Source: an uncultured Gammaproteobacteria bacterium (lineage in GTDB: Bacteria > Patescibacteriota > Microgenomatia > UBA10105 > UBA927). Taken from it: DNA of 64,000 nucleotides. Below the pieces are notes generated by a model, which was not told the origin of the DNA, did not search any database, and saw only the letters and a program-made list of their open reading frames with translations. The position numbers were made by a program, and so were the translations under genes. Each line of letters begins with the position of its first letter. Position 1 is the first letter of the stretch. The stretch lies in contig CAYMYO010000002.1 in the NCBI GenBank assembly GCA_964394685.1, positions 98,148-162,147 of the forward strand. The letters run 5' to 3'. Shown in pieces: positions 1,216 to 50,071 of this stretch.

Positions 1216-1376
1216 AATAAAAATAACCCCCTTCTCCGCCAGTTGGCGGATTCGGAGGACAAACCTGCTTATTATTATACCATGTCTTTTTCATTTGTCA
1301 TGCTGAATTTATTTCAGCATCTCTTTGATATGATGTATTTATGCGTCACGTTACCTATCACTACTTTATCTACATC

Positions 1377-1646
1377 ATGACAAACAAACGACGTGGAACA
1401 TTATATATCGGAGTAACGAATAATTTAGGAAGACGGGTGTTTGAACACAAACATGCTCTTTTTGAAGGATTTACAAAAGACTACCATCTTCATACATTAG
1501 TATATTACGAAGAATTTACGGATGTAGAACTCGCAATCAAACGCGAAAAACAACTCAAACGGTGGCATCGTCAATGGAAGATAAATCTGATTGAATCAAC
1601 TAATCCAGATTGGAAAGATTTGTCTATCCAATATTTTGGATCCTGA
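1377..1646 (+). CDS. GIY-YIG nuclease family protein (UPF0213/YhbQ-like small endonuclease)
   Basis: MTNKRRGTLYIGVTNNLGRRVFEHK contains the GIY..YIG motif with Arg and Glu in a small ~90 aa protein. I prefer the internal ATG at 1377 over the track start at 1341. Confidence 0.7.
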   Translation: MTNKRRGTLYIGVTNNLGRRVFEHKHALFEGFTKDYHLHTLVYYEEFTDVELAIKREKQLKRWHRQWKINLIESTNPDWKDLSIQYFGS

Positions 1647-1712
1647 AACAAGTTCAGGATGACAAAAAGGCTTCTGTTGCAGTAAACCCAATTTCTTTCT
1701 ATACTGGTTAGT

Positions 1713-9518: not shown

Positions 9519-9572
9519 ATATTATACATGGTATAATCTGATCATGACCAAGTAGTGAAACTTCAGAAGATT

Positions 9573-9845
9573 ATGTTCTTTTATACGTATGTTCTTGAGA
9601 GCAAAATAAAGAAAAAGTTGTATATTGGATATACGGGTGATTTAGTTCGAAGAGTAAAAGAACATAATCTTGGACTGAATCAATCAACGAAACCTTATAA
9701 ACCGTGGAAACTTATTTATTATGAAGCGAGTCTCGATCAAGAAGATGCAAAACGCAGAGAAATGTATCTTAAAACAAGTCAAGGAGGGAGACTTCTCAAG
9801 CGCAGATTGAAAGAATATTTCTTTCAACACCTGCGTTTTGCCTGA
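9573..9845 (+). CDS. GIY-YIG nuclease family protein, a paralog of the 1377..1646 gene
   Basis: MFFYTYVLESKIKKKLYIGYTGDLVRRVKEHN. The track ORF starts at a GTG at 9555, but the ATG at 9573 fits the family N-terminus. Confidence 0.65.
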   Translation: MFFYTYVLESKIKKKLYIGYTGDLVRRVKEHNLGLNQSTKPYKPWKLIYYEASLDQEDAKRREMYLKTSQGGRLLKRRLKEYFFQHLRFA

Positions 9846-26459: not shown

Positions 26460-26933
26460 ATGAGATCAAATAAAACATATACAAAAATACTCCCGGGTGA
26501 TGCAATCTATGGAAATAGACTACTGACAAGGTTTATTAATCGTGTGATGAAAAGCGGAAAAAAACGGGTAGCCGAGCAACTCGTGTATGGAGCATTAGAT
26601 ATCATTAAAGAAAAGGGAGAAGATCCAATAAAAGTGCTTGAAACAGCAATTAACACCGTTGGACCGAAAACAGAAGTGAAAGCGCGGCGGGTTGGTGGAG
26701 CATCTTATCAAGTGCCTATGGAAGTACGGGGAGATCGAAGAATTGCTCTCGCTATTCGATGGATTGTGGAATCCGCTAATAAACGGTCAAATAAAGAATA
26801 TAAAACCTACGCAGAAAAATTAGCTGCAGAATTGACTGATTGCGCTAAAGGTGTCGGAGAAGCAATTAAGAAACGTGATACCATACTCCGTATGGCTGAA
26901 GCGAACAAGGCATTTGCCCACTTCAAGTGGTAA
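26460..26933 (+). CDS. rpsG: 30S ribosomal protein S7
   Basis: PDAIYGNRLLTRFINRVMKSGKK...EVRGDRRIALAIRWIVESA. Confidence 0.9.
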   Translation: MRSNKTYTKILPGDAIYGNRLLTRFINRVMKSGKKRVAEQLVYGALDIIKEKGEDPIKVLETAINTVGPKTEVKARRVGGASYQVPMEVRGDRRIALAIRWIVESANKRSNKEYKTYAEKLAAELTDCAKGVGEAIKKRDTILRMAEANKAFAHFKW

Positions 26934-26959
26934 TTTGTTCTTCATAGTACAATAGAACC

Positions 26960-27442
26960 ATGGTATCTATTACTATTCAATCGGTTAGGCAGAGTGATAT
27001 TCCTTGGATAACCGAGGTCTTTCAAACACGTTGGGGAGGAGATTTTATCGTAAGCCGGGGCAAGAAACATAACCCAAAAGATCTTTTTGGTTTTATTGCA
27101 TGTATTGATACACAAAAAGTTGGGCTACTGACATTTAGAAACGATGATGATTCAATAGAATTAGTTTCGTTAGATAGTCTTTGTGATAATCAGGGAATCG
27201 GAACGGCATTAGTTCAAGCGTTAATTAATTATGCTAAAGAAAATAACAAACGGCGGATATGGCTTGTGACTACAAATAATAATACTCATGCGATGCGGTT
27301 TTATGAACACAGAGGATTGAGAAAAGTTCGCGAATATCTAAATGCAATAGTTGAATCAAGAAGAATAAAGCCATCAATACCGCTTACAGATGAATTTGGA
27401 GTAGAAATCAAAGATGAAATTGAATACGAGTATCAATTATGA
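26960..27442 (+). CDS. GNAT family N-acetyltransferase
   Basis: GNAT motif A-like QGIGTALVQALINYAKENN...RFYEHRGL. Confidence 0.7.
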   Translation: MVSITIQSVRQSDIPWITEVFQTRWGGDFIVSRGKKHNPKDLFGFIACIDTQKVGLLTFRNDDDSIELVSLDSLCDNQGIGTALVQALINYAKENNKRRIWLVTTNNNTHAMRFYEHRGLRKVREYLNAIVESRRIKPSIPLTDEFGVEIKDEIEYEYQL

Positions 27443-28527
27443 GACAAAAATGTTTTATATTTTCTATTACTTAGATCTGCAAGCTTCTTGGCTCTTTGTT
27501 TTTTCACATCAGATGGTAGTTCTTTGTAAATACAAGACAATTTCACTGCTGCGGTTCCTGGTCGGGGCGAATACCGAAAGACATGAAATTTTGAAATTGG
27601 GCTTTTTTTCAGAAACTCATACGTTTTTTGAAATTCTTTTTCAGATTCTCCGGGAAATCCGACGATGACGTCTGTTGCAATGAGCGCGTGCGGGTTTATT
27701 TTATGAAGTGTCGTTAATCGGTTCATCAATTCTTCTTGTTTATACTGGCGGTTCATACGTTTTAGAATTGTGTTGGATCCGGATTGAATAGGAATATGGA
27801 AAAAATGAACAAATCTAGTGTTATCTTTATTGTTTTTGTACCATGAAAGGAATTCTGGAGTGATGCTCCAAGGATGAATGGATCCAAAACTTACTCGATC
27901 AATTTTTGTATGCGTAAGTATTGAATCGATAAGTTCCATAAGTGTTTCTTCAGTGTCTTGACCAAAATACTCTGTATTAATCGCTGTTAAAATAACTTCT
28001 TGAATGAGAATATTTGATTGCTGTATTTCGGTTACAATATCAGCAATTTTTCGTGAAACTGCTCTTCCGCGAGTAAACGGTACAATACAATACGAGCAAA
28101 ACCGATTACATCCATCCTGAATTTTTATCATCATCCGACCTGAGTTTAAAAACTTATCATGGTTAACATTGTCATCCGCCAGCTGGCGGATCCCAGTATG
28201 ATTTTTGGTTAGATGCATTAATAATTGTGCTATTGAATTTTTCTTTTTATTATGTATCCAATAATCAACTTCTTTCAAAAGAGTGTTATTTTTAAACCAC
28301 AACGTCGCAGAGCATCCCGTAACGACGATTTTGGTCTTTGGAAATTTTTTCCGTATTTGATAGATATGTTGTCGCACTTCCCGTTCTGCTTTTCCGGTAA
28401 CTGCACAGGAGTTAATGATATAGAATTCTGGACGTTTTTCATCCCATGAAAACCCTGCATCAATAAGTTTTTTATCTAATACTTGTTTTTCGGCCTCATT
28501 GACACGACAGCCGAATGAAAAGCTCAT
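27433..28527 (-). CDS. MiaB/RimO/MtaB-family radical-SAM methylthiotransferase-like protein without a C-terminal TRAM domain
   Basis: An N-terminal MTTase domain (FGCRVNEAE...INSCAVTGKAE) is followed by the radical-SAM CNRFCSYC and PIQSGSNTILKRM. The protein ends where a TRAM domain would begin. The track ORF extends to 28551; the start at 28527 is chosen on the family N-terminus. Confidence 0.7.
   Translation of the reverse strand: MSFSFGCRVNEAEKQVLDKKLIDAGFSWDEKRPEFYIINSCAVTGKAEREVRQHIYQIRKKFPKTKIVVTGCSATLWFKNNTLLKEVDYWIHNKKKNSIAQLLMHLTKNHTGIRQLADDNVNHDKFLNSGRMMIKIQDGCNRFCSYCIVPFTRGRAVSRKIADIVTEIQQSNILIQEVILTAINTEYFGQDTEETLMELIDSILTHTKIDRVSFGSIHPWSITPEFLSWYKNNKDNTRFVHFFHIPIQSGSNTILKRMNRQYKQEELMNRLTTLHKINPHALIATDVIVGFPGESEKEFQKTYEFLKKSPISKFHVFRYSPRPGTAAVKLSCIYKELPSDVKKQRAKKLADLSNRKYKTFLSHN
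28174..28191. repeat. 18-bp GC-rich perfect palindrome ATCCGCCAGCTGGCGGAT; near-identical copies lie at 1234-1251 and 49997-50014
   Basis: Read directly. It is a perfect palindrome here, inside the MiaB-like CDS. The other copies match at 16/18 and 17/18 positions. Confidence 0.6.
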
Positions 28528-28652
28528 AAACGTCCGATTCATGAAGCTCATTGTAGCACACCATTCTTGCTTGATCCTGTGTTATTAAAGGATCAGCTTA
28601 GAATGGTGGGTACCCGTAGTAATTCTGATTACAGAGGGTATACAATAACTTC

Positions 28653-29255
28653 ATGTTGCCAATGAAGGTTCGAAACCATTTTAAAAAAGTTGACCCAATT
28701 TTATTTTCTTTAATCAAGAAACATGATGATATATCAATACAGCATTCGAATAACTATTTTTTGAGTTTATGTCGTGAGATCATGACACAACAACTGGCGA
28801 GCGGAGCGGCACGTGCAATTTTCGGGAGATTTGAGAAATTGTTTGAAAAAAGAGAAGTGGCACCGGAAATGGTTTTATCTCTTTCCGATCAAACAATTCG
28901 CGATACCGGAGCTTCATGGGCAAAGGTCAAATACATAAAAAGTCTTGCACAATGTGTCGCTTCGAAAACAATTGATTTGGACGGTATTGAGAAATTAAAT
29001 AACAAAGAAGTGATACAAGAGTTAATAAAAGTGAAAGGAATTGGTCCGTGGACAGCGGAAATGTTTTGTATGTTTTCACTCGGCCGTGAAGATGTATTTT
29101 CGTATGGAGATTTAGGTCTTCGTCACGCAATACAAAAAGCATATGGATTCAAAAAAGAACCAACAATAAAACAAATGGAGAAAATCACTTCAAAATGGTC
29201 ACCATATCGTACCTACGGAGCGCTTCTTCTTTGGAATAGTATTGATACAGTATAA
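28653..29255 (+). CDS. HhH-GPD DNA glycosylase, AlkA-like (3-methyladenine DNA glycosylase II)
   Basis: Helix-hairpin-helix VKGIGPWTAEMFCMF plus the catalytic Asp region SYGDLGL. Confidence 0.75.
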   Translation: MLPMKVRNHFKKVDPILFSLIKKHDDISIQHSNNYFLSLCREIMTQQLASGAARAIFGRFEKLFEKREVAPEMVLSLSDQTIRDTGASWAKVKYIKSLAQCVASKTIDLDGIEKLNNKEVIQELIKVKGIGPWTAEMFCMFSLGREDVFSYGDLGLRHAIQKAYGFKKEPTIKQMEKITSKWSPYRTYGALLLWNSIDTV

Positions 29256-30090
29256 TGAAATTATGAAAGATAAATATTCTGCTATTTGGTTATCGCATTC
29301 ATCAATTACTGACTATCTCAAATGTCCGCGCGCGTATTTTTTGAAAAACATGTATCGGGATCCGAAAAATAATCATAAGATTGCCATCATGCAACCGGCT
29401 CTTGCTCTTGGACAAACCGTGCACAGTGTTTTAGAATCACTTTCAACGCTTCCTGTGGAAGATCGTTTAATAGAATCGCTTGTAACGAAATTTGAAAAAA
29501 CGTGGGAAGAAATATCCGGGAAAAAAGGCGGATTTACAACAAGTGAAGAGGAAGAAAAATATAAAAAACGGGGGATAGAAATGATGGAACGGATTATGAA
29601 AAATCCCGGACCAATTTTGAAAAAAGCAATAAAAATCCGCCAAGAATTGCCGTATTTTTGGCTATCGGAAGAACAGAATATAATTCTCTGCGGCAAACTT
29701 GATTGGCTGGAGTATCTTGAGGATGTTGACAGTATTCGGATTATTGATTTCAAAACAGGAAAATTTGATGAAGATCCGGATTCCTTACAACTTCCTATTT
29801 ACATACTTCTTGCAACCAACTGTCAGACAAAAAAAGTATATGGTGCTCAATACTGGTATCTCAATCGTGATATTGCACCCGTTGACGTAGTTCTTCCCAC
29901 AGTAGAAGATGCGACAAAACGGCTTCTTGATATTGCCCGAACTATTTCTCTTGCACGAAAACTTGAACGGTTTGTGTGTACTCGGAAAGACGGATGTCCT
30001 GCATGTACACCCTATGAAATGGTGTTAACAGGAAAAGCAGAATTTATCGGCGTAGGAGTATATAATCAGGATACGTATATATTAAAATAA
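29242..30090 (+). CDS. Cas4-like PD-(D/E)XK nuclease with a 4-Cys cluster (DUF83/RecB-like); standalone, with no CRISPR array or cas genes in the window
   Basis: An N-terminal Cys in DYLKCPRAYF, the core IIDFKTGK, and the C-terminal CTRKDGCPACTPY, which is the Cas4/AddB-type Fe-S arrangement. Confidence 0.65.
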   Translation: MIQYNEIMKDKYSAIWLSHSSITDYLKCPRAYFLKNMYRDPKNNHKIAIMQPALALGQTVHSVLESLSTLPVEDRLIESLVTKFEKTWEEISGKKGGFTTSEEEEKYKKRGIEMMERIMKNPGPILKKAIKIRQELPYFWLSEEQNIILCGKLDWLEYLEDVDSIRIIDFKTGKFDEDPDSLQLPIYILLATNCQTKKVYGAQYWYLNRDIAPVDVVLPTVEDATKRLLDIARTISLARKLERFVCTRKDGCPACTPYEMVLTGKAEFIGVGVYNQDTYILK

Positions 30091-30102
30091 AGGAGGATCA
30101 CC

Positions 30103-30603
30103 ATGTCAACAAATACACTGTCAGTTACAATAAAAAAAATTATTACACTGGAAACAGCGATTTTTACGTTAGCATTTTGTGTGCCGCTTCTGTTTAATGG
30201 TTCACAGATTGTTACTGGAAGTATAATAAATACTCTTTTGTTTATTTCAGCAGCTAAACTGTCAAAGCGGGCGTTGCCATTCATCGCGATCATTCCAAGT
30301 TTGGGCGCTGTATCAAACGGTATTCTTTTTGGCCCATTTACTATATATCTCGTTTACTTTCTGCCATTTATTTGGATGGGAAATTATCTTTTGATGTGGA
30401 TAGCAAAATCCAGCAATTTTTTGATTGCCGCACTTGCGAAAAGTACATTTTTGTTTTTGATTGCTTATGTTTTTGTATCTTTCCATATTGTTCCAAAAAT
30501 ATTTTTAACTGCGATGGGAGTTTTACAGCTTGTTACTGCCATTGTTGGAGGAATAGCTGCCATCGGGATATCAAAATATATTTTAAAACCAGCTCATGAA
30601 TGA
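30103..30603 (+). CDS. polytopic membrane protein (about 5 TM), function unknown; co-operonic with the next gene
   Basis: 166 aa, with a strong Shine-Dalgarno AAAGGAGG and a stop overlapping the next start (ATGAATGA). Confidence 0.4.
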   Translation: MSTNTLSVTIKKIITLETAIFTLAFCVPLLFNGSQIVTGSIINTLLFISAAKLSKRALPFIAIIPSLGAVSNGILFGPFTIYLVYFLPFIWMGNYLLMWIAKSSNFLIAALAKSTFLFLIAYVFVSFHIVPKIFLTAMGVLQLVTAIVGGIAAIGISKYILKPAHE

Positions 30604-31399
30604 AGTAGAACAACTCGTTCAACTAATAAAAGATAAAAAGCATCTTGTTGCGATGCTTGCTCCGTCGTTTCCAATTGTTTTTGATTATCCGGATATTGTA
30701 AAACGTTTGAAACAAATAGGATTTCAGGAAGTTTTGGAGGTATCGGTGGGAGCTGAAATTACAAACGAACAGATGCTTGCGGAGTTAAATAAAGATAAAA
30801 AGAAACGATTTATTACCAGTCCCTGTGCAAGTGCTGTTCGGCTTATTCGGAAAAAATATCCGCAGCTTGAAAAATATCTTGCGTACAACGTTGATTCGCC
30901 AATGGTTGCTACCGCAAAGATTGCCCATCATAAGTGGCCGGATGCAAAGGTTGTGTTTATCGGACCCTGTATAGTGAAACGGCTTGAGGCATCAGAAGAT
31001 CATCCGGATTTAGATATTTTAGTTTTGACGTATAAGGAGCTCAATGAAGTATTGAAGGTTATTCAACCAGATGAAGCCATACCAGTTGAGAAATTATTTG
31101 ATTTAGAAAATTCCAGCACTCGGTTGTATCCAATATCCGGAGGATTAGCAGCCACAAGCTGTTCGTCACATTTACTTTCAAGTGATGAACTACAGGTGAT
31201 ATCAGGATGGAAAAACTGTGCAGAGGCGCTGGATAATTTTGAGAAAAACACCTCTGTTCGGCTTCTTGATATTCTCTTTTGCGATGGAGGATGTATTAAT
31301 GGCCCGGGGATTGAAAGCACGTTATCACTTGATGAGCGAAGAAATAAATTACTCGGATATATCGACCAGAGAAAAGCAGAATCTTCAGTTTCTTCGTGA
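30596..31399 (+). CDS. [FeFe]-hydrogenase H-domain-like protein, truncated, with a degenerate first cluster motif
   Basis: VAMLAPSFPIVFDYPD...GFQEVLEVSVGAEI matches the start of the H-domain. Motif L1 is degenerate (FITSPCASAV versus consensus TSCCPxW). Motif L2 is present as GPCIVKRLE (consensus PCxxKxxE). Motif L3 is present as FCDGGCINGPG (consensus CxGGCxxG). The protein is 267 aa with no ferredoxin-like N-terminus. Confidence 0.6.
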   Translation: MNEVEQLVQLIKDKKHLVAMLAPSFPIVFDYPDIVKRLKQIGFQEVLEVSVGAEITNEQMLAELNKDKKKRFITSPCASAVRLIRKKYPQLEKYLAYNVDSPMVATAKIAHHKWPDAKVVFIGPCIVKRLEASEDHPDLDILVLTYKELNEVLKVIQPDEAIPVEKLFDLENSSTRLYPISGGLAATSCSSHLLSSDELQVISGWKNCAEALDNFEKNTSVRLLDILFCDGGCINGPGIESTLSLDERRNKLLGYIDQRKAESSVSS

Positions 31400-31532
31400 C
31401 AAATTCGGGAATTTGTGTATACTACGAAAACAAAAGTGTAAAAGATTGTTTTCTCAGTATAAACCCATCTAATCAGATTTTTCGCTTTACAAGCTGCAAA
31501 TCTGAGTAAGATGGGTATACAATACTCCTACT

Positions 31533-32600
31533 ATGATGACGACGATCAATTGTCCCTACTGCGGGAAACCTGTTGAGATATCAAAAGCGATTGAAGAGGA
31601 TCTTCGACATGCAATTGAAGATGACGTAAAGAGTAAATTGCAGGAAAAAGCAGTTTTAGAGGTGAAAGAAAAAGAGAGAGAATTATTGGAGACAAAAAAA
31701 CAACTTGCTGAACTTATCAGACAACTTCGTGAGGAAAAAGTAGCACGCGAAAATGTGGAAGTGACGATGCAAAAAAGACTGTTGGAAGAACAGGAAAAAA
31801 TCAGAGTGAAAGCCAAGGAAGAAGATTCCGAAAAACACAGATTGGAGCTGAAAGAAAAAGAGACGCAGCTGGAAAGTATGCGAAAAACCATTGAAGAGTT
31901 GCAGCGTAAGGGAAGTGTCGGGTCACAACAGTTGCAGGGAGAGGTACAGGAGCTGGATCTGGAGCAAACACTGCATAACACATTTCCTCAAGATGCAATT
32001 GTTCCAATAGGAAAAGGAGTATTGGGAGCAGATATCAGGCAGGTTGTTAAAAGTCCGATGGGTATGGATTGCGGGACGATTCTTTGGGAATCAAAGCGGA
32101 CAAAGGCATGGTCAGATGGATGGATAGGAAAACTCAAAGAAGATTTGCTTCATGACAAAGCACACATCCCGGCAATCATTTCCGATACGCTTCCGGATGA
32201 GGCAAAATCCGGAATGGGATTCAAAGACGGCGTGTGGATTGCGTCACATAAACTCGCATTACCATTAGCTGCGCTTCTTCGAAAATCACTGTTGGACGCA
32301 GCCAAGCAGAAAAAAATTGCTGGAGCCCAGTCGTCAAAAGCAGAAGAGCTTTATGGGTTCGTAACCAGCCACGATTTTCAACATCAGATGGAAGCAATGA
32401 TTGAAACCTATCAGGACATGCAGAAAGAAATTCAAAAAGAACGTATGTCGTTTGAGCGAAGTTGGAAACTTCGCGAAATGCAGGTCAGCAGATTATTGAC
32501 TGGTGTAGCAGGACTCTATGGTAGCATGCAAGGAATTGCTGGAGCTGCACTTGCTCCAATTAAAAGCCTCGAATTGCCAAGCGGTGAACAATTGGAGTAG
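31533..32600 (+). CDS. DUF2130-like protein: an N-terminal zinc ribbon plus a long coiled coil
   Basis: CPYCGKP is followed by ~130 aa of K/E-rich coiled coil and a conserved C-terminal domain. Confidence 0.45.
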   Translation: MMTTINCPYCGKPVEISKAIEEDLRHAIEDDVKSKLQEKAVLEVKEKERELLETKKQLAELIRQLREEKVARENVEVTMQKRLLEEQEKIRVKAKEEDSEKHRLELKEKETQLESMRKTIEELQRKGSVGSQQLQGEVQELDLEQTLHNTFPQDAIVPIGKGVLGADIRQVVKSPMGMDCGTILWESKRTKAWSDGWIGKLKEDLLHDKAHIPAIISDTLPDEAKSGMGFKDGVWIASHKLALPLAALLRKSLLDAAKQKKIAGAQSSKAEELYGFVTSHDFQHQMEAMIETYQDMQKEIQKERMSFERSWKLREMQVSRLLTGVAGLYGSMQGIAGAALAPIKSLELPSGEQLE

Positions 32601-32611
32601 GATAGAGCTAT

Positions 32612-33124
32612 ATGATAAAAAAATCAAAAACATTCCCAATGGGAGTTAAAATTCTTATCGGCTGCGTCGGGTTACTTGTTATAGTGGGAATTCTTATGGG
32701 GACCATTGGAAGCGTCATTTTTTCCAAATTTGGCCTCAATTTCATGAAAAAAGCAGTGGAAACAAAAACCGGCGCAGAGATTAATGTCGGCGAAGGAAAA
32801 ATTCCAACCGGATTTCCAAAGGATTTTCCGTTGTATGCTGGGGCGAAAGTTGAAGGGAATATCTCAGGAGCTGAGAATAAAGCGGGAAAGGGATTTTGGT
32901 TAATTTTATCAACTCCAGACGCGGCTGAAAAAGTAACCGCATTTTACGAAACAAATTTACCCAAAAACGGATGGACTGTTGGTAATACGATGAATATTGG
33001 GCCATCGTCAACATGGGAAGTAACAAAAGGGGATATGGCAGGGGCTGTGATAGTAGCGACAGATGAAAAAGAAAAAGGGACAAGTATTGTTATAACACTG
33101 GCTCCAAAAGAAAAGGAAGAATAA
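32612..33124 (+). CDS. membrane-anchored hypothetical protein
   Basis: An N-terminal TM helix followed by a soluble domain; no recognisable motif. Confidence 0.4.
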   Translation: MIKKSKTFPMGVKILIGCVGLLVIVGILMGTIGSVIFSKFGLNFMKKAVETKTGAEINVGEGKIPTGFPKDFPLYAGAKVEGNISGAENKAGKGFWLILSTPDAAEKVTAFYETNLPKNGWTVGNTMNIGPSSTWEVTKGDMAGAVIVATDEKEKGTSIVITLAPKEKEE

Positions 33125-33125
33125 T

Positions 33126-33593
33126 ATGAACGGAAATAAGACAGTTATAGCAATATTACTGTCTGCACTCATGATCTGCGCGACCATTTATTATGTTGGG
33201 AAAAAGCCGGACAAAATTCCGACAGTTATCGTTCCGGAAAGCAATCAGTCGCAAACAGCAATTGCGACGCCAACCGCGGAAATACCAACACTAACAATAG
33301 ATGATCTTGCGCTTATTACCAAAGCAATAGCTCTCAAAACCGGTCTTTCTGAAACGGCAATCAACGTGACCATTTCAAAACACATTGGCGACTACGCAAA
33401 AGGCGGGATAGTAGAAAAGACAAGTGAAGTTGGCGGAGCCCAGTGGTTTGCGGCAAAGAAAAACGGCGCATGGGTTATTGTGCATGATGGGCAGGATTAT
33501 CCGAAATGCAGTGTACTTGTTGGATTTACATTTCCAAAAGAAATATTGGATAGTTGTTGGGACGATGCGACAAACAAGTTAAAAAGTTTGTGA
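33126..33593 (+). CDS. membrane-anchored hypothetical protein
   Basis: An N-terminal TM helix followed by a soluble domain; no recognisable motif. Confidence 0.4.
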   Translation: MNGNKTVIAILLSALMICATIYYVGKKPDKIPTVIVPESNQSQTAIATPTAEIPTLTIDDLALITKAIALKTGLSETAINVTISKHIGDYAKGGIVEKTSEVGGAQWFAAKKNGAWVIVHDGQDYPKCSVLVGFTFPKEILDSCWDDATNKLKSL

Positions 33594-34552
33594 TCAAACG
33601 ATACATAGGCATTTGTATACTTCTTTTTGGAATAGGACTTTATTTTTATTTTTTTCAAAAAGATCAAACGGTGTCACTCTCTCCGATAGTAGAACAATCA
33701 ACATGGACGCTGATAGCTACAGGTGATATTATTCCCGCCCGGTCAGTGAATTACAAAACACTTACGTATAAAGATTTTACCTGGGCGTGGAAGAATATTG
33801 CGCCAATAATAAAAGTTGGTGATATCACGGTTATTAATTTAGAATCTCCGCTTATAGATAATTGTCCAATAACCAACGAAGGCTTCAAATTTTGCGGAGA
33901 CAGCCGTCACATCGAAGGACTGGTTCATGCCGGCGTTGATGTGGCGACACTTGCCAATAACCACATTGGAAATTATGGAAAAAGTGGAATTGATGAAACA
34001 GTACAGCTGCTTCGATCCCATGGTATTGATGTTGCTGGGATTAATGAGGAACCGCCGATATGGGTTGTTAACAACATTCGTGTTGGATTTCTTGCATATA
34101 ACGATATTGGCGCAAAAGAAGAAGGAGTGTCGTGGGCGGATACAAATGTTATGGAAAAGGAAATTCAGAAGTTACGGAATAGTGTTGATGTATTGGTGGT
34201 GTCGATGAGTTGGGGAGAAGAATATATGGTTACACCGTCAGCCAGACAAAAAGAATTGGCTCATTTTATTATTGATAGCGGCGCGGATCTGATTTTAGGC
34301 AATCACCCTCACTGGATTCAGCCGGTCGAAGTGTATCAAGGTAAATATATTGTGTACGCGCATGGCAATACCATATTTGATCAAATGTGGAGCGAAGAAA
34401 CAAAAACAGGTGTTATCGGGAAATATACATTTTCAGGAATGCGGCTTACAAATGTCGAGTTTATACCAACGTATATCAAAGATTATGGTCAGCCAACGCT
34501 TCTTACCGGCGAGGCAAAAAAAGAAATATTACAGAAAATAATGATACTATAA
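33554..34552 (+). CDS. CapA-family (PGA_cap) metallophosphatase-like protein
   Basis: GDITVINLESP...LANNHIGNYGKSG...GNHPHWIQPVE...YAHGNTIFDQ. The track start is a TTG; the true start is uncertain. Confidence 0.75.
   Translation: MLGRCDKQVKKFVIKRYIGICILLFGIGLYFYFFQKDQTVSLSPIVEQSTWTLIATGDIIPARSVNYKTLTYKDFTWAWKNIAPIIKVGDITVINLESPLIDNCPITNEGFKFCGDSRHIEGLVHAGVDVATLANNHIGNYGKSGIDETVQLLRSHGIDVAGINEEPPIWVVNNIRVGFLAYNDIGAKEEGVSWADTNVMEKEIQKLRNSVDVLVVSMSWGEEYMVTPSARQKELAHFIIDSGADLILGNHPHWIQPVEVYQGKYIVYAHGNTIFDQMWSEETKTGVIGKYTFSGMRLTNVEFIPTYIKDYGQPTLLTGEAKKEILQKIMIL
34457..34552 (+). repeat. direct repeat copy A, the in-frame capA 3' end
   Basis: About 75% nt identity to 35954-36049; it encodes EFIPTYIKDYGQPTLLTGEAKKEILQKIMIL*. 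Confidence 0.6.
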
Positions 34553-34582
34553 ATGTATGAGGAAAATTATAACTCTAAATTT

Positions 34583-34606
34583 AATGTTATAGAATTCAAT
34601 AACATT
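34583..34606. repeat. 24-bp palindromic site, copy 1 (AATGTTATAGAATTCAATAACATT)
   Basis: 8-bp arms around a GAATTC core. It lies inside a ~57-bp segment that duplicates an internal part of the KilA-N gene. Confidence 0.6.
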
Positions 34607-34730
34607 AGAAAAGAAGCAGGATTTAATATTTAAACACATCGAATTCGACGGGTTTAAAAATAAACCAACATGTAATTTAATTATGGCGAATTTGCCATAA
34701 TAAAAAAGAATATAAAATAACAAAGTATTT

Positions 34731-35558
34731 ATGAGAAAAATCACAGCTCAAGGCTTTGATATTGCCATTATTCGCAAAGATAATGAGGAATATATTTCTT
34801 TGACCGACATGGCAAAGTTTAAAGATCGTGAAGCAACAGGTATTGTAATTTCTAATTGGTTATCCACGAAATACACGATCCAGTTTGCTGGAGCTTGGGA
34901 ACAAGTTCATAACCCTATGTTTAATGTTATGGAATTCCATAACATTAGAAATGAAGCTGGATCTCATGGATTTATTTTATCCTCTTCAAAATGGATACAA
35001 AAAACAAACGCAATAGGGATACGGTCATCTTCTGGTCGATATGGCGGTACTTTTGCTCACAAAGATATTGCTTTCGAGTTTGCAACATGGATTTCGCCAG
35101 AATTCAAACTCTATCTTATTAAAGAATTCCAGCGGTTAAAAGAAGAAGAAAATAAACGATTGGTTCTCGGATGGGATCTCAAACGTCAGCTTACCAAAAT
35201 TAATTATAGAATTCATACAGACGCAATTAAAGATAATTTACTCCCGAAAACTGTAACAAAGAAACAAGCACAGATAACTTATGCAACCGAGGCAGATATA
35301 TTGAATATCGCACTGTTTAGCAAAACCGCCAAAGACTGGCAAAGTGAAAATAAAAATAAAGAAGGAAATATTCGTGACTATACTGATGTTGTTCAACTTG
35401 TGGTACTCGCTAATCTTGAAAGTATCAACGCAGAATTCATTAAAAAAGGAATTCCTCAATCGGAACGATTAGTTCAACTGAATGCAATTGCCATCTCTCA
35501 AATAAAGTCACTCATCGGCAATCCTTCAATCAAAAAATTAGAACGTGGAAGTAAATAA
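34731..35558 (+). CDS. KilA-N domain protein (phage/plasmid-type)
   Basis: The N-terminal domain FDIAIIRKDNEEYISLTDMAKF...ISNWL...GGTFAHKDIAFEFATWISPEFKLYLIKEF matches the KilA-N consensus (GTxxH.D.A..FA.WiSpeF). Confidence 0.6.
   Translation: MRKITAQGFDIAIIRKDNEEYISLTDMAKFKDREATGIVISNWLSTKYTIQFAGAWEQVHNPMFNVMEFHNIRNEAGSHGFILSSSKWIQKTNAIGIRSSSGRYGGTFAHKDIAFEFATWISPEFKLYLIKEFQRLKEEENKRLVLGWDLKRQLTKINYRIHTDAIKDNLLPKTVTKKQAQITYATEADILNIALFSKTAKDWQSENKNKEGNIRDYTDVVQLVVLANLESINAEFIKKGIPQSERLVQLNAIAISQIKSLIGNPSIKKLERGSK
34923..34946. repeat. 24-bp perfect palindrome, copy 2 (AATGTTATGGAATTCCATAACATT), inside the KilA-N coding sequence
   Basis: Its reverse complement is identical to itself; it encodes FNVMEFHNI. 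Confidence 0.6.
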
Positions 35559-35559
35559 A

Positions 35560-35955
35560 ATGATTAAGAAAAAGCCAGTTTATTCAATCAGCGATAGATT
35601 GTGGGGTGAGGACGGACCCTATTCGGAAGTGAAATTGATTATTGAGACACGGATTTTAGACGAGAGGATAAGCAGGACATTTGTCATCGTTGAAGTATCA
35701 ATAAATCCATATACATTTGAATTAATACGGAAGCATAAGACTTTATTTTATAGTGATAAAATGATCCAGCAATTATTAGAACATTCTGAATATCGAGGGC
35801 AAAGTGATGGATATGTTTCTATGGCATTTTCTGAGGAATATGGACCAGATGTGCTAGAAAAGGCCCAGCAATCAGTCGAATATTGTAAGAATACAATTGT
35901 CAAAATGCACCAATTTGTAATGAAACAATTGAATAATAAAAAAAATATAAATTAA
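35560..35955 (+). CDS. hypothetical protein (element cargo)
   Basis: The ATG at 35560 lies immediately after the KilA-N stop and has a GGAAG Shine-Dalgarno. No recognisable domain. Confidence 0.35.
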   Translation: MIKKKPVYSISDRLWGEDGPYSEVKLIIETRILDERISRTFVIVEVSINPYTFELIRKHKTLFYSDKMIQQLLEHSEYRGQSDGYVSMAFSEEYGPDVLEKAQQSVEYCKNTIVKMHQFVMKQLNNKKNIN

Positions 35956-36049
35956 ATTTATCCCAACCTATATTCAAGACTACGGTCAACCAACCCTTCT
36001 TACCGGCGACGCAAAAGAAAAAGTATTACAAAAGCTAAGTGTAAATTAA
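35954..36049 (+). repeat. direct repeat copy B, the orphan capA 3' end
   Basis: See copy A. It is out of frame with the upstream ORF and ends in TAA at 36047-36049. Confidence 0.6.
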
Positions 36050-36101
36050 TATGTTTACGTTATTATTCACCCATTCTGCCTGCATTAAAAAAAATGTTTT
36101 A

Positions 36102-36758
36102 TTATATTACCTTAGTGGAGTGAACACCTTTTTTGGCGAGGAGATATTTTACAGAAGTATTTTGTTTGTTCAATGAATCTATTACTTTAGAAATTAACTT
36201 TTTTGGATCAGGTCCAAAATGGACTATTGCATTAGTTTTTTTAGGCACTTTTGTGATTAATGTTTTTAAATCGTCTGTGATCCCTCCAGTTTCAGTTAAA
36301 ACGCCAATAATTTTTCCCATCTCATATAGATTAATGAATTCATTTAACGTGCCCCATCTGCCGGAAATAATTATTGCCGCATCACAGTTGGCTGTTGAGA
36401 TAACATTTCTGTAGCATAGCCGCGCAAACTGTTCACATTTGAACTGATTGTTATTCCTTATAAAAAAGAGTTTCTTATAATACGCTGGGACATAAAATAA
36501 TTTGGTAAATATAGAAGGATTATTTTCCGGAAAAAACATTTTATGGTGTTGAAAATCAATTTCAGGAGTAAAACCCCAAATATCTACACCCTTTTTCGAG
36601 GCTTCATTGGCAACCATATAAGGTAATCCCGTGCTCCCGCCGGTTATCAGGATTAAATTTTTACGTTTTCCAAATTCTATTCCTAATTTTTTTGCAAGAA
36701 CTAAAGCTTTTTTGTTATTTTCTACCGCAGATCCAAAAACTCCAATTTTGTATATCAT
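36102..36758 (-). CDS. LOG-family (TIGR00725-like) Rossmann-fold nucleotide-binding protein
   Basis: LILITGGSTGLPYMVANEA (GGxxGxM) and AIIISGRWGTLNEFINLYE (PGGxGTxxE-like), the two LOG signature motifs. Confidence 0.65.
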   Translation of the reverse strand: MIYKIGVFGSAVENNKKALVLAKKLGIEFGKRKNLILITGGSTGLPYMVANEASKKGVDIWGFTPEIDFQHHKMFFPENNPSIFTKLFYVPAYYKKLFFIRNNNQFKCEQFARLCYRNVISTANCDAAIIISGRWGTLNEFINLYEMGKIIGVLTETGGITDDLKTLITKVPKKTNAIVHFGPDPKKLISKVIDSLNKQNTSVKYLLAKKGVHSTKVI

Positions 36759-36794
36759 AAGTTTTTAGACTATATTCTTAAAATAATTATATAC

Positions 36795-38357
36795 TTATTG
36801 CCACTCTATCGTTGCCGGAGGTTTGTCTGTTATATCGTACACGACTCTCCCAACTCCCACTTCGTCAACTATTCTTTTGGAGATTGTTTTAAGGTACGGA
36901 AGTGCCTTTAAGGAAAAATTTGCCGTCATAGAATTTATTGATTCGACTACCCTTACTACAATTGCCTTATTATATTTTTGATGTTCATCTCCTTTGATTC
37001 CAAGACTGGGGACATTGATAAGTATTGCAAATGACATCCATATATCGTTTTTTACCGGGCTATTTTGCAGTGTTTCCTCTATTATTTTAGTAGCTTTTCT
37101 TACAAGTTCTACTTTGCTTCTCGTTACCTCTCCCTGTACTCTTATTGCAAAACCGGGACCTGGAAAAACCTTTTTAAATACTGCTTCATCTGGCAAATTC
37201 AAGAAATTAGCTACCAGCCTCACTTTGTCTTTAAATAAATCCCTAAGGGGTTCTAATAATTCTACATTTAAATGATTTGGTAAGCCGCCAACATTGTGAT
37301 GAGGTTTTATTTGAGATGAAAATTTTGTTACGCCACTTTCTACAACGTCAGACCAAATAGTTCCCTGGGCTACAATTTTTGTGTTGTATTTTTTAGCTAT
37401 TTCTTCGAATATTTCAATGAATGTCTTGCCAATTATTTTGCATTTTTTATCGGGTTTAATTTCTGATTTTAGCGCATTGAAAAATCTATCGCTTTCGTTA
37501 ACGACTTCAAGTTTTATATCAAATTTACGACAAAATAATACAACTTCACTTTGAGTTTCTTTTGGCATTAAACCACTATCAACATAAATTGCAATTATTT
37601 GACTTTTTCTTAAAGCTTTTTTTAATAAAGCTGTCATTGTTAGTGAATCAACTCCACCTGATACAGCGACTATAACTTTGCTTTCCCTCACGCGAGATTT
37701 AATTGACAGTATTGCCTGATCAACGAAAATTTTAGGTGTCCATTTCAATTTCTTTTTGATTTTACAAATTTTGAAGGAAAAATTTGAGAGGATTATATCT
37801 CCCTGTATAGTATGAGAAACTTCGGGGTGAAATTGCACACCGAATAGATTAGAGCCTATTTTTTTATACGCGGTAATAGGTGTGTATTCACTTGATGCTA
37901 ATATTTCGTATCCTTTGGGCAATTGCATTACGGTGTCTCCGTGACTCATCCAAACAATAGAATTATTTGTAACTCCATCGAATAAAGCATTTTTATGGAT
38001 TATTGAAATTTGCGAACTACCATACTCTGATTTTTCTTTTTTTACTTGTCCACCTTTTATTTTGGCTAATAATTGATGGCCATAACAAATTCCCAATACC
38101 GGAGTTCCACTTTCTAGCCATGTTTGATCAAATAGTATGGAGTTCGTTTTAACAGAAGCTGCGCTTCCGGACAATATTAATCCTTTAACTTGAAAATTAT
38201 TATTTTCTATATTTGTTATCCAATCTTTATGACAAATATCAGCCGGCACGATGACTGAATACGCACCAACATCCTGAAGCCTAGATTTAATTAAATGCGT
38301 GTATTGGCTGCCAAAGTCGAATATTAAAATTATCTCTTTTTTTGATACCATGTTCAT
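36795..38357 (-). CDS. guaA: GMP synthase (glutamine-hydrolysing): GATase-1 plus a PP-loop ATP pyrophosphatase
   Basis: A GATase with catalytic Cys (GICYGHQLL), the PP-loop VAVSGGVDSL, and a C-terminal HHNVGGLP dimerisation motif. Confidence 0.85.
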   Translation of the reverse strand: MNMVSKKEIILIFDFGSQYTHLIKSRLQDVGAYSVIVPADICHKDWITNIENNNFQVKGLILSGSAASVKTNSILFDQTWLESGTPVLGICYGHQLLAKIKGGQVKKEKSEYGSSQISIIHKNALFDGVTNNSIVWMSHGDTVMQLPKGYEILASSEYTPITAYKKIGSNLFGVQFHPEVSHTIQGDIILSNFSFKICKIKKKLKWTPKIFVDQAILSIKSRVRESKVIVAVSGGVDSLTMTALLKKALRKSQIIAIYVDSGLMPKETQSEVVLFCRKFDIKLEVVNESDRFFNALKSEIKPDKKCKIIGKTFIEIFEEIAKKYNTKIVAQGTIWSDVVESGVTKFSSQIKPHHNVGGLPNHLNVELLEPLRDLFKDKVRLVANFLNLPDEAVFKKVFPGPGFAIRVQGEVTRSKVELVRKATKIIEETLQNSPVKNDIWMSFAILINVPSLGIKGDEHQKYNKAIVVRVVESINSMTANFSLKALPYLKTISKRIVDEVGVGRVVYDITDKPPATIEWQ

Positions 38358-38367
38358 AGTTATTTAG

Positions 38368-39003
38368 TCAACGTTTTATGGATTTAAAGACAAACCCCTT
38401 TTTTTGTTGCGAAATAAATTCTTTCAAAAAATTAATGTCTTTTGCAGACAGGATTTTTTCGTCAAAAGCGACTTTTAACAAATTATTAATATTTGTAATC
38501 GAACACACATCTACTGATAATCTTTCTTTAATAAAATCATCATGACCATAGCTAAAAATAGCATGTACATATATTTGATAACCCAAGCGTTTTAATTCAT
38601 ATATTGCCGGTTGAATTGTAGCTCCGGACACAATGACATCATCTATGATTACAACTTTATTTCGTCCTGTCGGAATTTGTCCAACAAACCTTCCTTTTTC
38701 GGCATATTCTTTATCACTTTTCCGATATAATACCAGCGGAATATTTAACTTATCAGCAAGTATTGAAGCAAAATATGATCCGCCGCTTTCAATGCCACAA
38801 ACGAGGTCAGTATGAGGGGGTATGATACTCAATAAATCATCAGTAATTATTTTCCTTAGTTTAATGTTATTTAATGTATTTTTAATATTGATAAAAATCG
38901 GGGTCATCCTGTTAGGTTGTACTTCAAAAAATATTTTAGGGCTGTACTTTAATACGCCGGGAGAAGTAACCAATAATCTTTCAAGTTCAAAATTAGAGTT
39001 CAT
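38368..39003 (-). CDS. type I phosphoribosyltransferase, orotate PRTase-like
   Basis: PRPP-binding loop VVIIDDVIVSGATI. The overall layout (GxLKYSPKIFF, GIESGGSYFAS) resembles PyrE. Confidence 0.6.
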   Translation of the reverse strand: MNSNFELERLLVTSPGVLKYSPKIFFEVQPNRMTPIFINIKNTLNNIKLRKIITDDLLSIIPPHTDLVCGIESGGSYFASILADKLNIPLVLYRKSDKEYAEKGRFVGQIPTGRNKVVIIDDVIVSGATIQPAIYELKRLGYQIYVHAIFSYGHDDFIKERLSVDVCSITNINNLLKVAFDEKILSAKDINFLKEFISQQKKGFVFKSIKR

Positions 39004-39165
39004 AGATATACTTATTTATCGAATCGTTTCGCAAAATTTAAGGAATTTATTATTGCATCCTTTTATTCAAGTTAAAGCTGATTATAGCATTATAATAATC
39101 TGTAATGATAGTTTGTATTCTTTATACCGTACCTGTTATATATGAGTTTCTGGTATAATTGTTTC

Positions 39166-39717
39166 ATGCTATATATTTTGGGGGGAGCATCAAGATCAGG
39201 AAAATCCATAATTGCCCGTAGATTTGTTTCGGAAAAGCAAATACCTTTTTTTTGCTTAGACGTTTTAATTACCTCTTTGCAAGAGATCCCATCCCTAGAC
39301 ATTAAACATGGGCAACCTATTATAAGCAAATCAGAAAAGCTGTGGCCGGTAGTTAAACCACTACTTACTCATTTATTTAGGGAGGAACTAAATTATTTGA
39401 TTGAAGGTGATGGGATACTTCCAAGCAAGATAGCCGAATTAATAAAGGATTTTTCAAATGAAATTAAAGCATGTTTTGTCGGCTTTTCTGAGATAAGTCT
39501 TCAAGACAAATTCAAGAAAATAAAAGAATTTGGAGAGAACAAAGATGACTGGACAAAAAGAGTTTCTGATGAAAAATTAATGTCAAACATTGAGGATATG
39601 ATTATGTTTAGTAAGTATCTTAAATCTGAGTGTAATAAATATAACATTCGTTATTTTGATTCATCTGATAATTTTTGTGAATATCTTGAAAACGTATTTC
39701 AGTATTTAACAAAATAA
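39166..39717 (+). CDS. P-loop kinase, chloramphenicol-phosphotransferase (CPT)-like fold
   Basis: Walker A ILGGASRSGKS, similar to the CPT-family GxSSxGKS. The ATG at 39166 is preferred over the track start. Confidence 0.45.
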   Translation: MLYILGGASRSGKSIIARRFVSEKQIPFFCLDVLITSLQEIPSLDIKHGQPIISKSEKLWPVVKPLLTHLFREELNYLIEGDGILPSKIAELIKDFSNEIKACFVGFSEISLQDKFKKIKEFGENKDDWTKRVSDEKLMSNIEDMIMFSKYLKSECNKYNIRYFDSSDNFCEYLENVFQYLTK

Positions 39718-39730
39718 GTTTGAATCTCCT

Positions 39731-42110: not shown

Positions 42111-42150
42111 TATCCTGTATAATAAGATAGTCTGTTTGAAAGGGCAATAT

Positions 42151-43359: not shown

Positions 43360-43428
43360 ACTCTTTTGGTGAAATGATTACCCCAGTAAAGAGCTACCGG
43401 TCGCATGAGGAAGAAAAAAATTTCTGAG

Positions 43429-43809
43429 TTATACTTTAGTCTTCTGTGGACATCTAATTTTTTCTTGAACTACATCCGCTTTTCCGATTTTGATGGGATT
43501 AATCAGTTCCTGTAGCCAATATGCGTTCGTTGGTAAAGCGTCTACCGAAGCGGTGATAATATATTTCCCTAAAGCACGGCTACAAACAAAATCCCGGCTT
43601 TTTCCAAACATAAATTCTTCAGGCTTAATACGAGTTATGTTTGTTGTGTATGATTGGAGTTTATTAAAGGTTTCATCTCCTTTGCCGTAATATAATACAA
43701 CCAGTCCGATAGGGAAGATTTACTTTTTGAGTTTTCAGTTTTTTTAAAAATTTGTCCAAGATTTTTCCAGTGTCTCTCACCATTATGGTTACTGAAATTA
43801 AATCTCTCA
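43429..43809 (-). pseudogene. probable frameshifted remnant of a glycosyltransferase-like gene
   Basis: Two adjacent minus-strand reading frames. One reads MRDLISVTIMVRDTGKILDKFLKKL..., a GT2-like N-terminus, and ends at a TGA. The other reads ...ILPIGLVVLYYGKGDETFNKL...CPQKTKV. Together they cover most of an otherwise empty 450-bp gap. Confidence 0.3.
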
Positions 43810-43812
43810 TAC

Positions 43813-49688: not shown

Positions 49689-49997
49689 ATGCCAAAAGGT
49701 CGAATTCGCGTACGTTTAAAAGCATACGACAGCAGAGTTATTGATGATTGCTGTCAGAAAATTCTTGATGTAGCAGTCAGGACTGGCGCTCGTGTGGTAG
49801 GACCTGTACCCTTACCTACATCCAAGGAACATTTTAACGTGCAGCGCGCAACGTTTATCGACAGAAACAGTCGGGAAGATTTCATGATTGCGACGCATAA
49901 ACGGCTTGTAGATATCATAGAGCCGACGGATAAGACGATTGATCAACTCATGCATTTGGATTTACCTGCTGGAGTTGATGTAGAGATAAAGATGTAA
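49689..49997 (+). CDS. rpsJ: 30S ribosomal protein S10
   Basis: RIRVRLKAYDSRVIDDCCQKIL...HKRLVDI. Confidence 0.9.
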   Translation: MPKGRIRVRLKAYDSRVIDDCCQKILDVAVRTGARVVGPVPLPTSKEHFNVQRATFIDRNSREDFMIATHKRLVDIIEPTDKTIDQLMHLDLPAGVDVEIKM

Positions 49998-50071
49998 TCC
50001 GTCAGCTGGCGGATCATGAGATACTTTGGTATGCTCGCGTTTTGAGTCCAAAAGTCTCGGAGACGTTGTAA

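Follow-up and report, generated by a model that had tools for sequence, protein, structure and literature searches.

Three dispersed hairpins in a Patescibacteria genome

The stretch of DNA analysed here, called the window throughout, comprises 64,000 nucleotides of contig CAYMYO010000002.1 from a Patescibacteria (Candidate Phyla Radiation, CPR) genome and has a GC content of 39%. It carries the gene order rpoB-rpoC-rpsL-rpsG … fusA-tuf-rpsJ-rplC, which, taken with the nearest relatives of its proteins, assigns it to Patescibacteria (Gottesmanbacteria-like). Dispersed in it are three near-identical GC-rich 18-mers, which are the subject of this report. Copy 1 is located between a minus-strand gene for a TypA/BipA-like GTPase (start codon at 1215) and a plus-strand gene for a GIY-YIG nuclease, copy 2 lies inside a gene for an enzyme of the MiaB/MtaB family, and copy 3 overlaps the end of rpsJ. 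These gene assignments had been made in the initial annotation of the window and proved to be correct; a search of the window with up to three mismatches also confirmed the three 18-mers that it had described:

1234-1251, copy 1 of the 18-mer, CTCCGCCAGTTGGCGGAT, two mismatches
28174-28191, copy 2 of the 18-mer, ATCCGCCAGCTGGCGGAT, a perfect palindrome
49997-50014, copy 3 of the 18-mer, ATCCGTCAGCTGGCGGAT, one mismatch

There is no fourth match in the window at this threshold. The view that such a set is unlikely to arise by chance was upheld by 100 dinucleotide-preserving shuffles, in which the mean number of matches was 0.01 and no shuffle reached three. Copy 2 is also the sole GC-rich perfect palindrome of at least 16 nt in the window. 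The copies differ from each other in the central four bases (CAGCTG to CAGTTG), in the outermost pair and by a C>T change, with plus-strand T·G pairing as its result; these are substitutions of the kind that a hairpin tolerates. Thus the 18-mer is a real, non-random, dispersed hairpin repeat. A literature search for the 18-mer sequence itself returned no relevant match, and Rfam and tRNA scans of the whole window gave none. Isolated 8-nt half-sites at 9198, 41553 and 58309 look like chance occurrences; their reading as an uptake-sequence-like signal was rejected because isolated 8-mers are rare and lack a partner arm.

The tagged unit and the candidate Ssn-type nuclease genes

The initial annotation treated the bare 18 bp as the element. 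They do form a palindrome, but the functional unit is longer, about 27 nt, and consists of a TGTC tag, the hairpin and a CCCAG tail. The three copies represent this unit to a different extent:

28170..28196, plus strand, copy 2, complete tagged unit (TGTC tag 28170-28173, 18-mer 28174-28191, CCCAG tail 28192-28196)
49993..50017, plus strand, copy 3, degenerate tagged unit (TGTA tag, ATCCGTC-agct-GGCGGAT, CAT tail)
1227..1260, minus strand, copy 1, nested untagged form, GTCCTCCGA-[ATCCGCCAACTGGCGGAG]-AAGGGGG

The plus strand of copy 2, which is antisense to the mtaB-like gene, reads tGTC[ATCCGCC-agct-GGCGGAT]CCCAG. Formally this is a 9+9 palindrome without a loop; folded as single-stranded DNA it leaves GTC unpaired and forms a 7-bp stem with a 4-nt loop (-7.3 kcal/mol), and the NTS repeat of Neisseria, folded alongside, gives an identical layout. 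The window contains five GTCAY-tagged hairpins, compared with a mean of 0.96 in shuffled sequences (0 of 200 shuffles reach five). The stem is at least 8 bp in three of the five, namely copy 2 and the two hairpins that flank the GIY-YIG gene next to copy 1.

Repeats of this design have been described before. The CGTC-tagged super-family of repetitive extragenic palindromes (REPs; CGTC-1 to CGTC-4) has an unpaired CGTC tag that is often TGTC (TGTC or CCTC being accepted), stems of 8-9 bp that open with an A-T and then a T-A pair, loops of 4-5 nt and a short unpaired 3' tail with the consensus CCA (PMC3733652). Neisseria dRS3 and Rickettsia RPE-4 and RPE-6 are members; the units are mostly intergenic, near the 3' end of the upstream open reading frame (ORF), and predominantly arranged as head-to-head dimers. 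Intragenic units are known as well, notably in DNA-repair and tRNA-modification genes, as are different REPs at one site of orthologous genes, and no dedicated transposase has been found (PMC3733652). The NTS is the oriented form of dRS3 (CGTCATTCCCGCGMAVGCGGGAATCYRG; CGTCAT-TCCCGCG-MAV-GCGGGA-ATCYRG). The 94-residue single-domain GIY-YIG nuclease SsnA binds and cuts it solely as single-stranded DNA, and ssn genes across bacteria are typically flanked by "Ssn-related motifs" (SRM) (PMC11893778).

Copy 2 shares with the CGTC REPs the TGTC variant of the tag, the A-T/T-A start of the stem (AT…AT), a 4-nt loop (AGCT) and a short unpaired CC(A) tail, here CCC-A; the tail is CAT in copy 3 and missing from copy 1. 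The TGTC tag is complete only in copy 2, copy 3 having TGTA and copy 1 a GTC that stands 9 nt further out, at the base of an outer stem. The 18-mer is likewise a multi-copy dispersed family, with units near the 3' ends of upstream ORFs, an intragenic unit in a tRNA-modification gene and different repeats at the same site of orthologous genes. Features in common with NTS/dRS3 are the GTCAT tag, which is oriented and unpaired, a GC-rich stem-loop with 7-8 bp and a 4-nt loop, dispersal in many copies and a tail that reads ATCYRG in Neisseria and ATCC(C)AG in copy 2. We therefore consider it probable, at roughly 0.6, that the CGTC/TGTC-tagged REP / Ssn-motif class includes the small dispersed hairpin repeat of which the three 18-mers are copies.

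The genes for candidate partner nucleases and the hairpins that flank the first of them are as follows:

1341-1646, plus strand, single-domain GIY-YIG nuclease of 101 residues, SsnA homolog (Pfam GIY-YIG E = 1.7e-15)
1296..1323, plus strand, upstream tagged hairpin of this ssn gene, tGTC[ATGCTGAA-tttat-TTCAGCAT]CTC
1637..1663, minus strand, downstream tagged hairpin of the ssn gene, inverted, tGTC[ATCCTGAA-cttgt-TTCAGGAT]CCA
9555..9845, plus strand, second small GIY-YIG gene, 96 residues (Pfam; 38% identity over 64 residues to N. gonorrhoeae SsnA, E = 5e-9)

The first gene begins 90 bp from copy 1. Its product is 51% identical to N. gonorrhoeae SsnA over 85 residues (BLASTP, E = 2e-32), and tblastn against a plasmid collection that included two complete N. 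gonorrhoeae chromosomes pointed to one locus in this species (E = 3e-22). The matched locus encodes a small GIY-YIG protein amid 7 strict NTS copies within ±750 bp and is therefore ssnA. By its similarity to SsnA (far below E = 1e-10), its single domain and its length close to 94 residues, the protein is a predicted nuclease of the Ssn family. Searches of PDB and NCBIfam returned no Ssn entry, only a weak UPF0213 match.

The downstream hairpin of the ssn gene (-8.7 kcal/mol, z = -4.9) overlaps the last codons of the gene. Such bracketing recurs at four other distinct Patescibacteria homolog loci that were fetched with their context, in Gottesmanbacteria (L303/L304), Nomurabacteria (L305/L306), Saccharimonadales (L309) and at one further locus (L310): a tGTC[AT…hairpin…AT] unit lies upstream on the plus strand and its counterpart downstream on the minus strand. 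The tails are mostly CCA, with CCA/CCAG or close variants throughout, and the stem cores are genome-specific (ATTCCGGG, ATCCCAGCG, ATCCCAGA, ATCCTGAA, ATGCTGAA and TCCCGGG). In the closest relative's ssn copy (L311, 88% protein identity), similarity to the window runs from the upstream hairpin and ends exactly at the downstream tag, while the outer flanks are unrelated. Therefore, hairpin, ssn gene and hairpin form a discrete cassette, and copy 1 is located outside of it as delimited in this comparison.

Some further observations concern these cassettes. L311 has two to three tandem tagged hairpins upstream of ssn, and its positions 408-470, aligned with window positions 1640-1663, reveal that the downstream hairpin has gained 33 nt precisely within its loop; hairpin apices are therefore sites of insertions and deletions. 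A large share of the closest Ssn homologs of the 1341-1646 protein are found on contigs of only 0.5-1.5 kb, which fits assembly breaks at flanking hairpin repeats, or multi-copy cassettes. In the Gottesmanbacteria locus, three tagged hairpins cluster in the infA-rpmJ spacer of a ribosomal protein operon (L303 2836-2972), a parallel to copy 3.

Whether the second GIY-YIG gene (9555-9845) belongs to an Ssn system is uncertain; its product is more distant from SsnA, and the window shows no tagged hairpins on its flanks. Metagenome loci L259 and L201 have GIY-YIG genes near tagged 18-mers, and these resemble it more than the 1341-1646 gene. As a partner of the 18-mer core it is supported by L259 only, the hairpin in L201 being 0.9 kb away. 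L259 contains a GIY-YIG gene with six tagged hairpins of the CCGCCAGTTGGCGG core on its flanks. The same contig (Ga0209270_1055904, L259 1-1326) carries a genuine tRNA-Val(GAC) at 322-397 together with tRNA-derived units at 767-880 and 662-766 and, at about 10-320, a tandem array of four units of 84 nt. In these derivatives a tagged CCGCCAACTGGCGG hairpin replaces the 3' segment of the D-stem and the 5' segment of the anticodon stem and ends exactly at the anticodon loop, so that the GTCA tag of the opposite strand coincides with the TGAC of this loop; the small GIY-YIG genes come after the tRNA-like units.

According to the mechanism that we propose, single-stranded DNA would arise during replication, transformation or repair, and the tagged strand would fold into a 7-bp GC-rich hairpin with its 5' GTC tag unpaired. 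A single-domain Ssn-family GIY-YIG nuclease would bind the folded strand and, judging by its homologs, cut the single strand a few bases upstream. In the window this enzyme would be supplied by the 1341-1646 gene, which sits inside its own hairpin-bounded cassette. The repeats would be spread or maintained through the interaction with the nuclease and would persist at sites where they do little harm, such as the 5' leader that holds copy 1, the position behind a stop codon that copy 3 occupies and the disordered linker in which copy 2 is read in-frame. By analogy with Neisseria we infer that it is the 1341-1646 nuclease in particular that may recognise this hairpin core and cut the 18-mer hairpins, and that the cell may benefit from it.

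Several findings weigh against the assignment to this class. In the window, head-to-head dimers are absent and all three copies are singletons. The folded stem has 7 bp, shorter than the 8-9 bp of the published families, and the perfect tag occurs at copy 2 only, since the TGTA of copy 3 differs from TGTC by one mismatch and no tag adjoins the 18-mer in copy 1. The SRM pattern HGTCWYN(0-2)YYVSBRHN(0-5)WNVSBRGN(0-2)RNCYNB has 0 matches in the window (0.12 expected), whereas the identical script finds 8 around N. gonorrhoeae ssnA; copy 2 fits the HGTCWY tag of this pattern and fails at two positions of the hairpin apex. The hairpins that flank the ssn gene have a TGAA…TTCA core, not CCGCCAG, and thus the CCGCCAG core may have a partner other than the 1341-1646 enzyme. 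Only in L259 does the CCGCCAG core flank a GIY-YIG gene, and this single tight case of nuclease and core concerns a gene that is closer to the window's second GIY-YIG gene. GIY-YIG homologs occur at 0 of 80 genome loci that hold the 18-mer (533 kb) and at 3 of 80 tagged metagenome loci, with no local enrichment. In reference genomes GTCA stands within 13 nt of only about 16% of the low-GC 18-mer copies, and GTC directly upstream of the 18-mer is at background (2 of 168 flanks); by itself, the 18-mer core therefore does not identify a member of the CGTC-REP class.

The known systems also differ from the window repeat in other respects. Compared with NTS, the stem sequence is different, the ssn-bracketing hairpins have another core, and the tags point away from ssn, whereas the NTS copies nearest to ssn in N. 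gonorrhoeae point towards it. In Patescibacteria, copies within ORFs seem frequent: they make up to about 28% of the tagged metagenome copies (by a crude ORF model), compared with a reported 2% in N. meningitidis. Patescibacteria are not covered in the text of PMC11893778 and are outside the five phyla listed in PMC3733652; in other genomes, unlike in the CGTC REPs, the 18-mer core is often untagged. The GTAG REPs with their REP-associated tyrosine transposases (RAYT; REPtrons, relatives of IS200/IS605) likewise combine an unpaired tetranucleotide tag, recognition of single-stranded DNA and an enzyme gene flanked by its own repeats. The window repeat is not one of them: its tag is TGTC, in line with (T/C)GTC, and the adjacent gene encodes a GIY-YIG nuclease, not a Y1 tyrosine transposase; the CGTC class is not known to transpose.

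The sites of the three copies

The site of copy 2 can be followed through orthologous genes. The host gene is the following:

27433..28551, minus strand, host gene of copy 2, methylthiotransferase of the MtaB/MiaB family (UPF0004 and radical SAM domains, no TRAM domain)

In the sense strand the 18-mer makes six whole codons, I-R-Q-L-A-D, and the full unit T-G-I-R-Q-L-A-D-D, that is, nine codons with tag and tail inside an uninterrupted ORF of 372 residues, as in the in-frame palindromes of Rickettsia. The element occupies residues 119-127 in the linker between the UPF0004 and radical-SAM domains, a segment that is hypervariable in a protein alignment of orthologs. An AlphaFold2 model of the protein has a mean predicted local distance difference test (pLDDT) score of 89.7, and its sole segment below 50 covers residues 121-129 (IRQLADDNV), which include the 18-mer-encoded residues 121-126; the model thus predicts that the linker is disordered and structurally permissive.

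Six orthologs have the arrangement TTGTCATCC-[core]-GGATCC(C) on the antisense strand, the tag standing precisely four codons ahead of DKFL, a conserved motif. The frame of tag and tail is constant at the nucleotide level, and it encloses four different hairpin cores:

window and L002, GCCAGCTGGC
L003, the window core decayed by three substitutions
L180, TGAACTTGTTTCA, a core that also flanks the ssn gene of the window
L181, CGGACAAGCGAAGAGCGATCAG
L179, CG-TCCGCCAGCAGGCGGA-TCAG

The core lengths differ by multiples of three, and therefore the reading frame is kept. The mtaB genes of the window and L002 are 77.6% identical overall, and their longest identical run, a block of 33 nt, falls where the protein is conserved least. 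With the linker left out, a rough mtaB tree does not group the carriers of the 18-mer core in one clade. Distant orthologs contain other translated repeats at other positions of the linker, for instance ARND fused directly to DKFL. A fixed tagged site together with different repeats elsewhere in the linker means that the linker is a retained and permissive site, and a constant tag and tail around a changing core indicate recognition of the tag rather than a need for any stable stem.

The initial annotation had suggested that six codons of a short dispersed element were inserted in-frame and tolerated. The presence of a tolerated short dispersed element in the linker stands. A recent insertion of six codons does not, because six orthologs are tagged at the same codon position and the linker is no longer than in element-free orthologs. 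In the ortholog alignment IRQLAD itself is conserved in one ortholog only (P0003), with VRQLTD in P0009, and further copies of the 18-mer exist widely in other genomes, so that neither observation contradicts an inserted element as such. The Rickettsia palindromic elements, of which RPE-1 is the classic in-frame insert, are similar in that a palindromic repeat is translated within an intact housekeeping gene of a small reduced genome; the window insert is far shorter (27 nt, 9 residues), and the mtaB site is occupied in several species with exchanged cores.

What is new here is this stem family, its phylum and the conserved in-gene site with exchanged cores, the repeat class itself being already known; the class is extended to Patescibacteria, a phylum neither listed nor discussed in PMC3733652 and PMC11893778. 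A small genome with a bounded ssn cassette, at least two hairpin cores and one orthologous in-frame site offers a compact natural test bed. The mtaB site bears on two open questions: are the repeats of this class still mobile or homogenised, and does recognition of the tag proceed independently of that of the core? In the annotation of CPR proteins, odd peptides (IRQLAD, PPAGG, ILKQVQDDK, ARND…) are explained as translated hairpin repeats.

Another palindrome is translated in the window: an untagged GC-rich one, CCTGCCT-gccggca-AGGCAGG, lies in-frame at 53140-53160 in the C-terminal tail of rplV (…EEKGLPAGKAGEK*). A peptide similar to that encoded by it, CLPAGR, fills the mtaB linker of ortholog P0011, and judging from the sequences these may represent a second family of translated palindromes.

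The 18-mer of copy 3 starts on the final base of the TAA with which rpsJ terminates (49995-49997), and this TAA belongs at the same time to the stretch of the tag; its one C>T change gives plus-strand T·G pairing. In L180, TGACATTT stands between the rpsJ stop and the conserved spacer; in the window the palindrome takes that place. Since L180 lacks the palindrome at the orthologous rpsJ-rplC spacer, copy 3 is an insertion/deletion difference between relatives. The spacer itself (50018-50099, about 95 nt) is nearly identical in L180; a terminator-like hairpin (50070-50094) and a T run form its end, immediately ahead of rplC. Its sequence suggests a ribosomal-protein leader or attenuator; it has no match in Rfam.

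The inner hairpin of copy 1 is the 18-mer, and its outer arms are CCTCC and GGGGG, the latter being the Shine-Dalgarno region of the TypA-like gene. A promoter-like site on the minus strand (1274-1301) agrees with 11 of 12 consensus positions and would drive this gene; its -35 hexamer, ATGACA, is the complement of the TGTCAT tag of the upstream ssn hairpin. The predicted transcript would start about 50 nt before the start codon, and the leader (1216-1267) contains copy 1 and has an RNA fold of -20.9 kcal/mol (z = -3.1) in which CCUCC pairs with the Shine-Dalgarno GGGGG. A conserved typA leader was rejected as the explanation of copy 1: in Dojkabacteria (L069) an intact symmetric composite, GTCCTCCtt[18-mer]tcGGAGGAC, with 25 nt identical to copy 1, has an unrelated gene as its neighbour. 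This makes copy 1 a composite element that is dispersed.

Distribution in other genomes and competing explanations

The 18-mer, with Y/R allowed at the centre, was found in more than 120 stretches of reference genomes versus about 35 expected (our estimate from the size of the collection). Among the 80 loci examined, 26 belong to Patescibacteria, 33 to Bacteroidota and 21 to other phyla; several of the last group come from high-GC genomes with the match inside an ORF and are probably chance matches. Among the matches listed, several genomes hold two or three perfect copies. The contexts comprise apices of long tagged palindromes (L094, L101, L103, L105, L128, L129), terminator-like stems, CAAAGTT-like repeats and, in low-GC genomes, the interior of long ORFs; examples of the nested form are GTCATTGCG[18-mer]CGCAATGAC and GTCATCCTG[18-mer]CAGGATGAC. 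GTCAT is 6.5-fold more frequent within 13 nt of the 18-mer than at control positions. In many Patescibacteria, Bacteroidota and low-GC loci the 18-mer lies between low-complexity direct repeats of CAAAGTT, TTTGAGTT and TTTCTAA types (L071, L074, L114, L115, L121, L123, L128), sometimes inside long ORFs.

The tagged 21-mer GTCATCCGCCAGYTGGCGGAT (GTCAT plus core) occurs in more than 120 metagenome stretches versus about 1 expected by our estimate. About half of these copies are symmetric (GTCAT…ATGAC) and are not dimers of two units. Among the copies listed, 10 are oriented with an NTS-like tail, ATCCAG or ATCCAA, 11 have CCA, and none lies in mtaB; a few are chimeric and include half of a GTCATTGCGAGG-type element.

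One could argue that the 18-mer is a generic stable RNA hairpin module, serving in mRNA 3'-end protection, in the structure of 5' leaders or in terminator stems, which has nothing to do with Ssn and stands beside the tag of copy 2 incidentally. In favour of it, the copies in other genomes are mostly untagged and many extend into terminator-like stems with T runs (L072, L076, L099, L111, L131). Additionally, copy 3 directly follows the rpsJ stop and its substitution still allows G·U pairing in the sense RNA, and copy 1 lies between the promoter-like site and the ribosome-binding site of the TypA-like gene in a stable fold that pairs with the Shine-Dalgarno sequence. An RNA-level role is plausible for copies 1 and 3. 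However, a function at mRNA ends is inapplicable to copy 2 within its coding region, the transcribed strand lacks, after each of the three copies, the T run of an intrinsic terminator, the six mtaB orthologs conserve the nucleotides of tag and tail while the core varies, and the tagged form is hugely over-represented in metagenomes. For the family as a whole such a module is possible but rather unlikely.

The exchange of cores in mtaB also admits a bolder form of the Ssn-motif reading, in which the TTGTCATCC…GGATCC frame is a fixed docking site and the core an exchangeable cassette, converted in a homing-like manner by Ssn-type cleavage and templated repair. Repair would copy the currently dominant core of a genome into resident tagged sites, even in the linker of an essential gene, and transfer of ssn cassettes would have carried an identical 18-nt core across Patescibacteria, Bacteroidota and other phyla. 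As a further possibility, the tag would be partly a target site besides being a part of the element, and the coincidence of GTCA with the anticodon-loop TGAC in L259 would fit this. We regard this extension as unlikely. The 18-mer might also be a mini palindromic insertion in its own right, directed to the apices of hairpins or the centres of palindromes and present in tagged REPs only secondarily; this would account for an identical 18-mer exactly central in many longer palindromes with unrelated outer arms. Furthermore, apices do undergo insertions (the 33-nt loop insertion of L311), the mtaB site keeps its frame despite core replacement, and carriers of the core are not one clade. On the other hand, no candidate mobilising enzyme was found besides the GIY-YIG genes, an 18-bp unit is too short to have its own ends, and 54 of 85 copies lack a palindrome extension, that is, are not nested; the core exchange could also result from Ssn cleavage and repair, which makes this idea compatible with the tagged-repeat assignment. 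As a separate explanation it appears doubtful.

The initial annotation had proposed a regulator or restriction-modification target containing CAGCTG. An operator for a dimeric transcription factor would have a perfect dyad of this typical length, and copy 1 does lie in a divergent promoter region. But copy 2 is in the middle of a gene, copy 3 immediately follows a stop codon inside an operon, the orthologous mtaB sites keep the flanks and swap the supposed operator, the 18-mer occurs across phyla in tandem arrays, ORFs and tRNA-like repeats, and the substitutions are compatible with a hairpin (loop, terminal pair, T·G pair); an operator is thus very improbable. CAGCTG is a known type II recognition sequence, and this is what speaks for a restriction-modification or methylation target. 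Yet CAGCTG occurs 18 times in the window versus 18.5 expected, and copy 1, like many copies in other genomes, has CAGTTG at its centre. The window proteins scanned included neither a DNA methyltransferase nor a restriction enzyme, the only methyltransferase (42100-43359) matching rRNA/protein small-methyltransferase families. Such a target is hardly credible, and with a frequency as expected, a varying centre and an unsuited distribution the proposal is not supported.

The remaining observations concern the surroundings of copy 2. About 19 kb (26933-46307) separate rpsG from fusA, which are normally adjacent; this interval includes the minus-strand mtaB-like gene, repair nucleases and a low-GC island. 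In the relatives L179 and L180 the interval has only about 7-9 kb with the same core set (HhH-GPD, PD-(D/E)XK, TspO, DUF2130). The region at 34-40 kb is probably an island, with 32-35% GC and reversed skew. Within it, a 26-bp perfect AT-rich palindrome, TAATGTTATGGAATTCCATAACATTA (34582-34607), and a related inverted repeat (34922-34947) surround the start of a gene with a KilA-N domain (34731-35558) and resemble operators.

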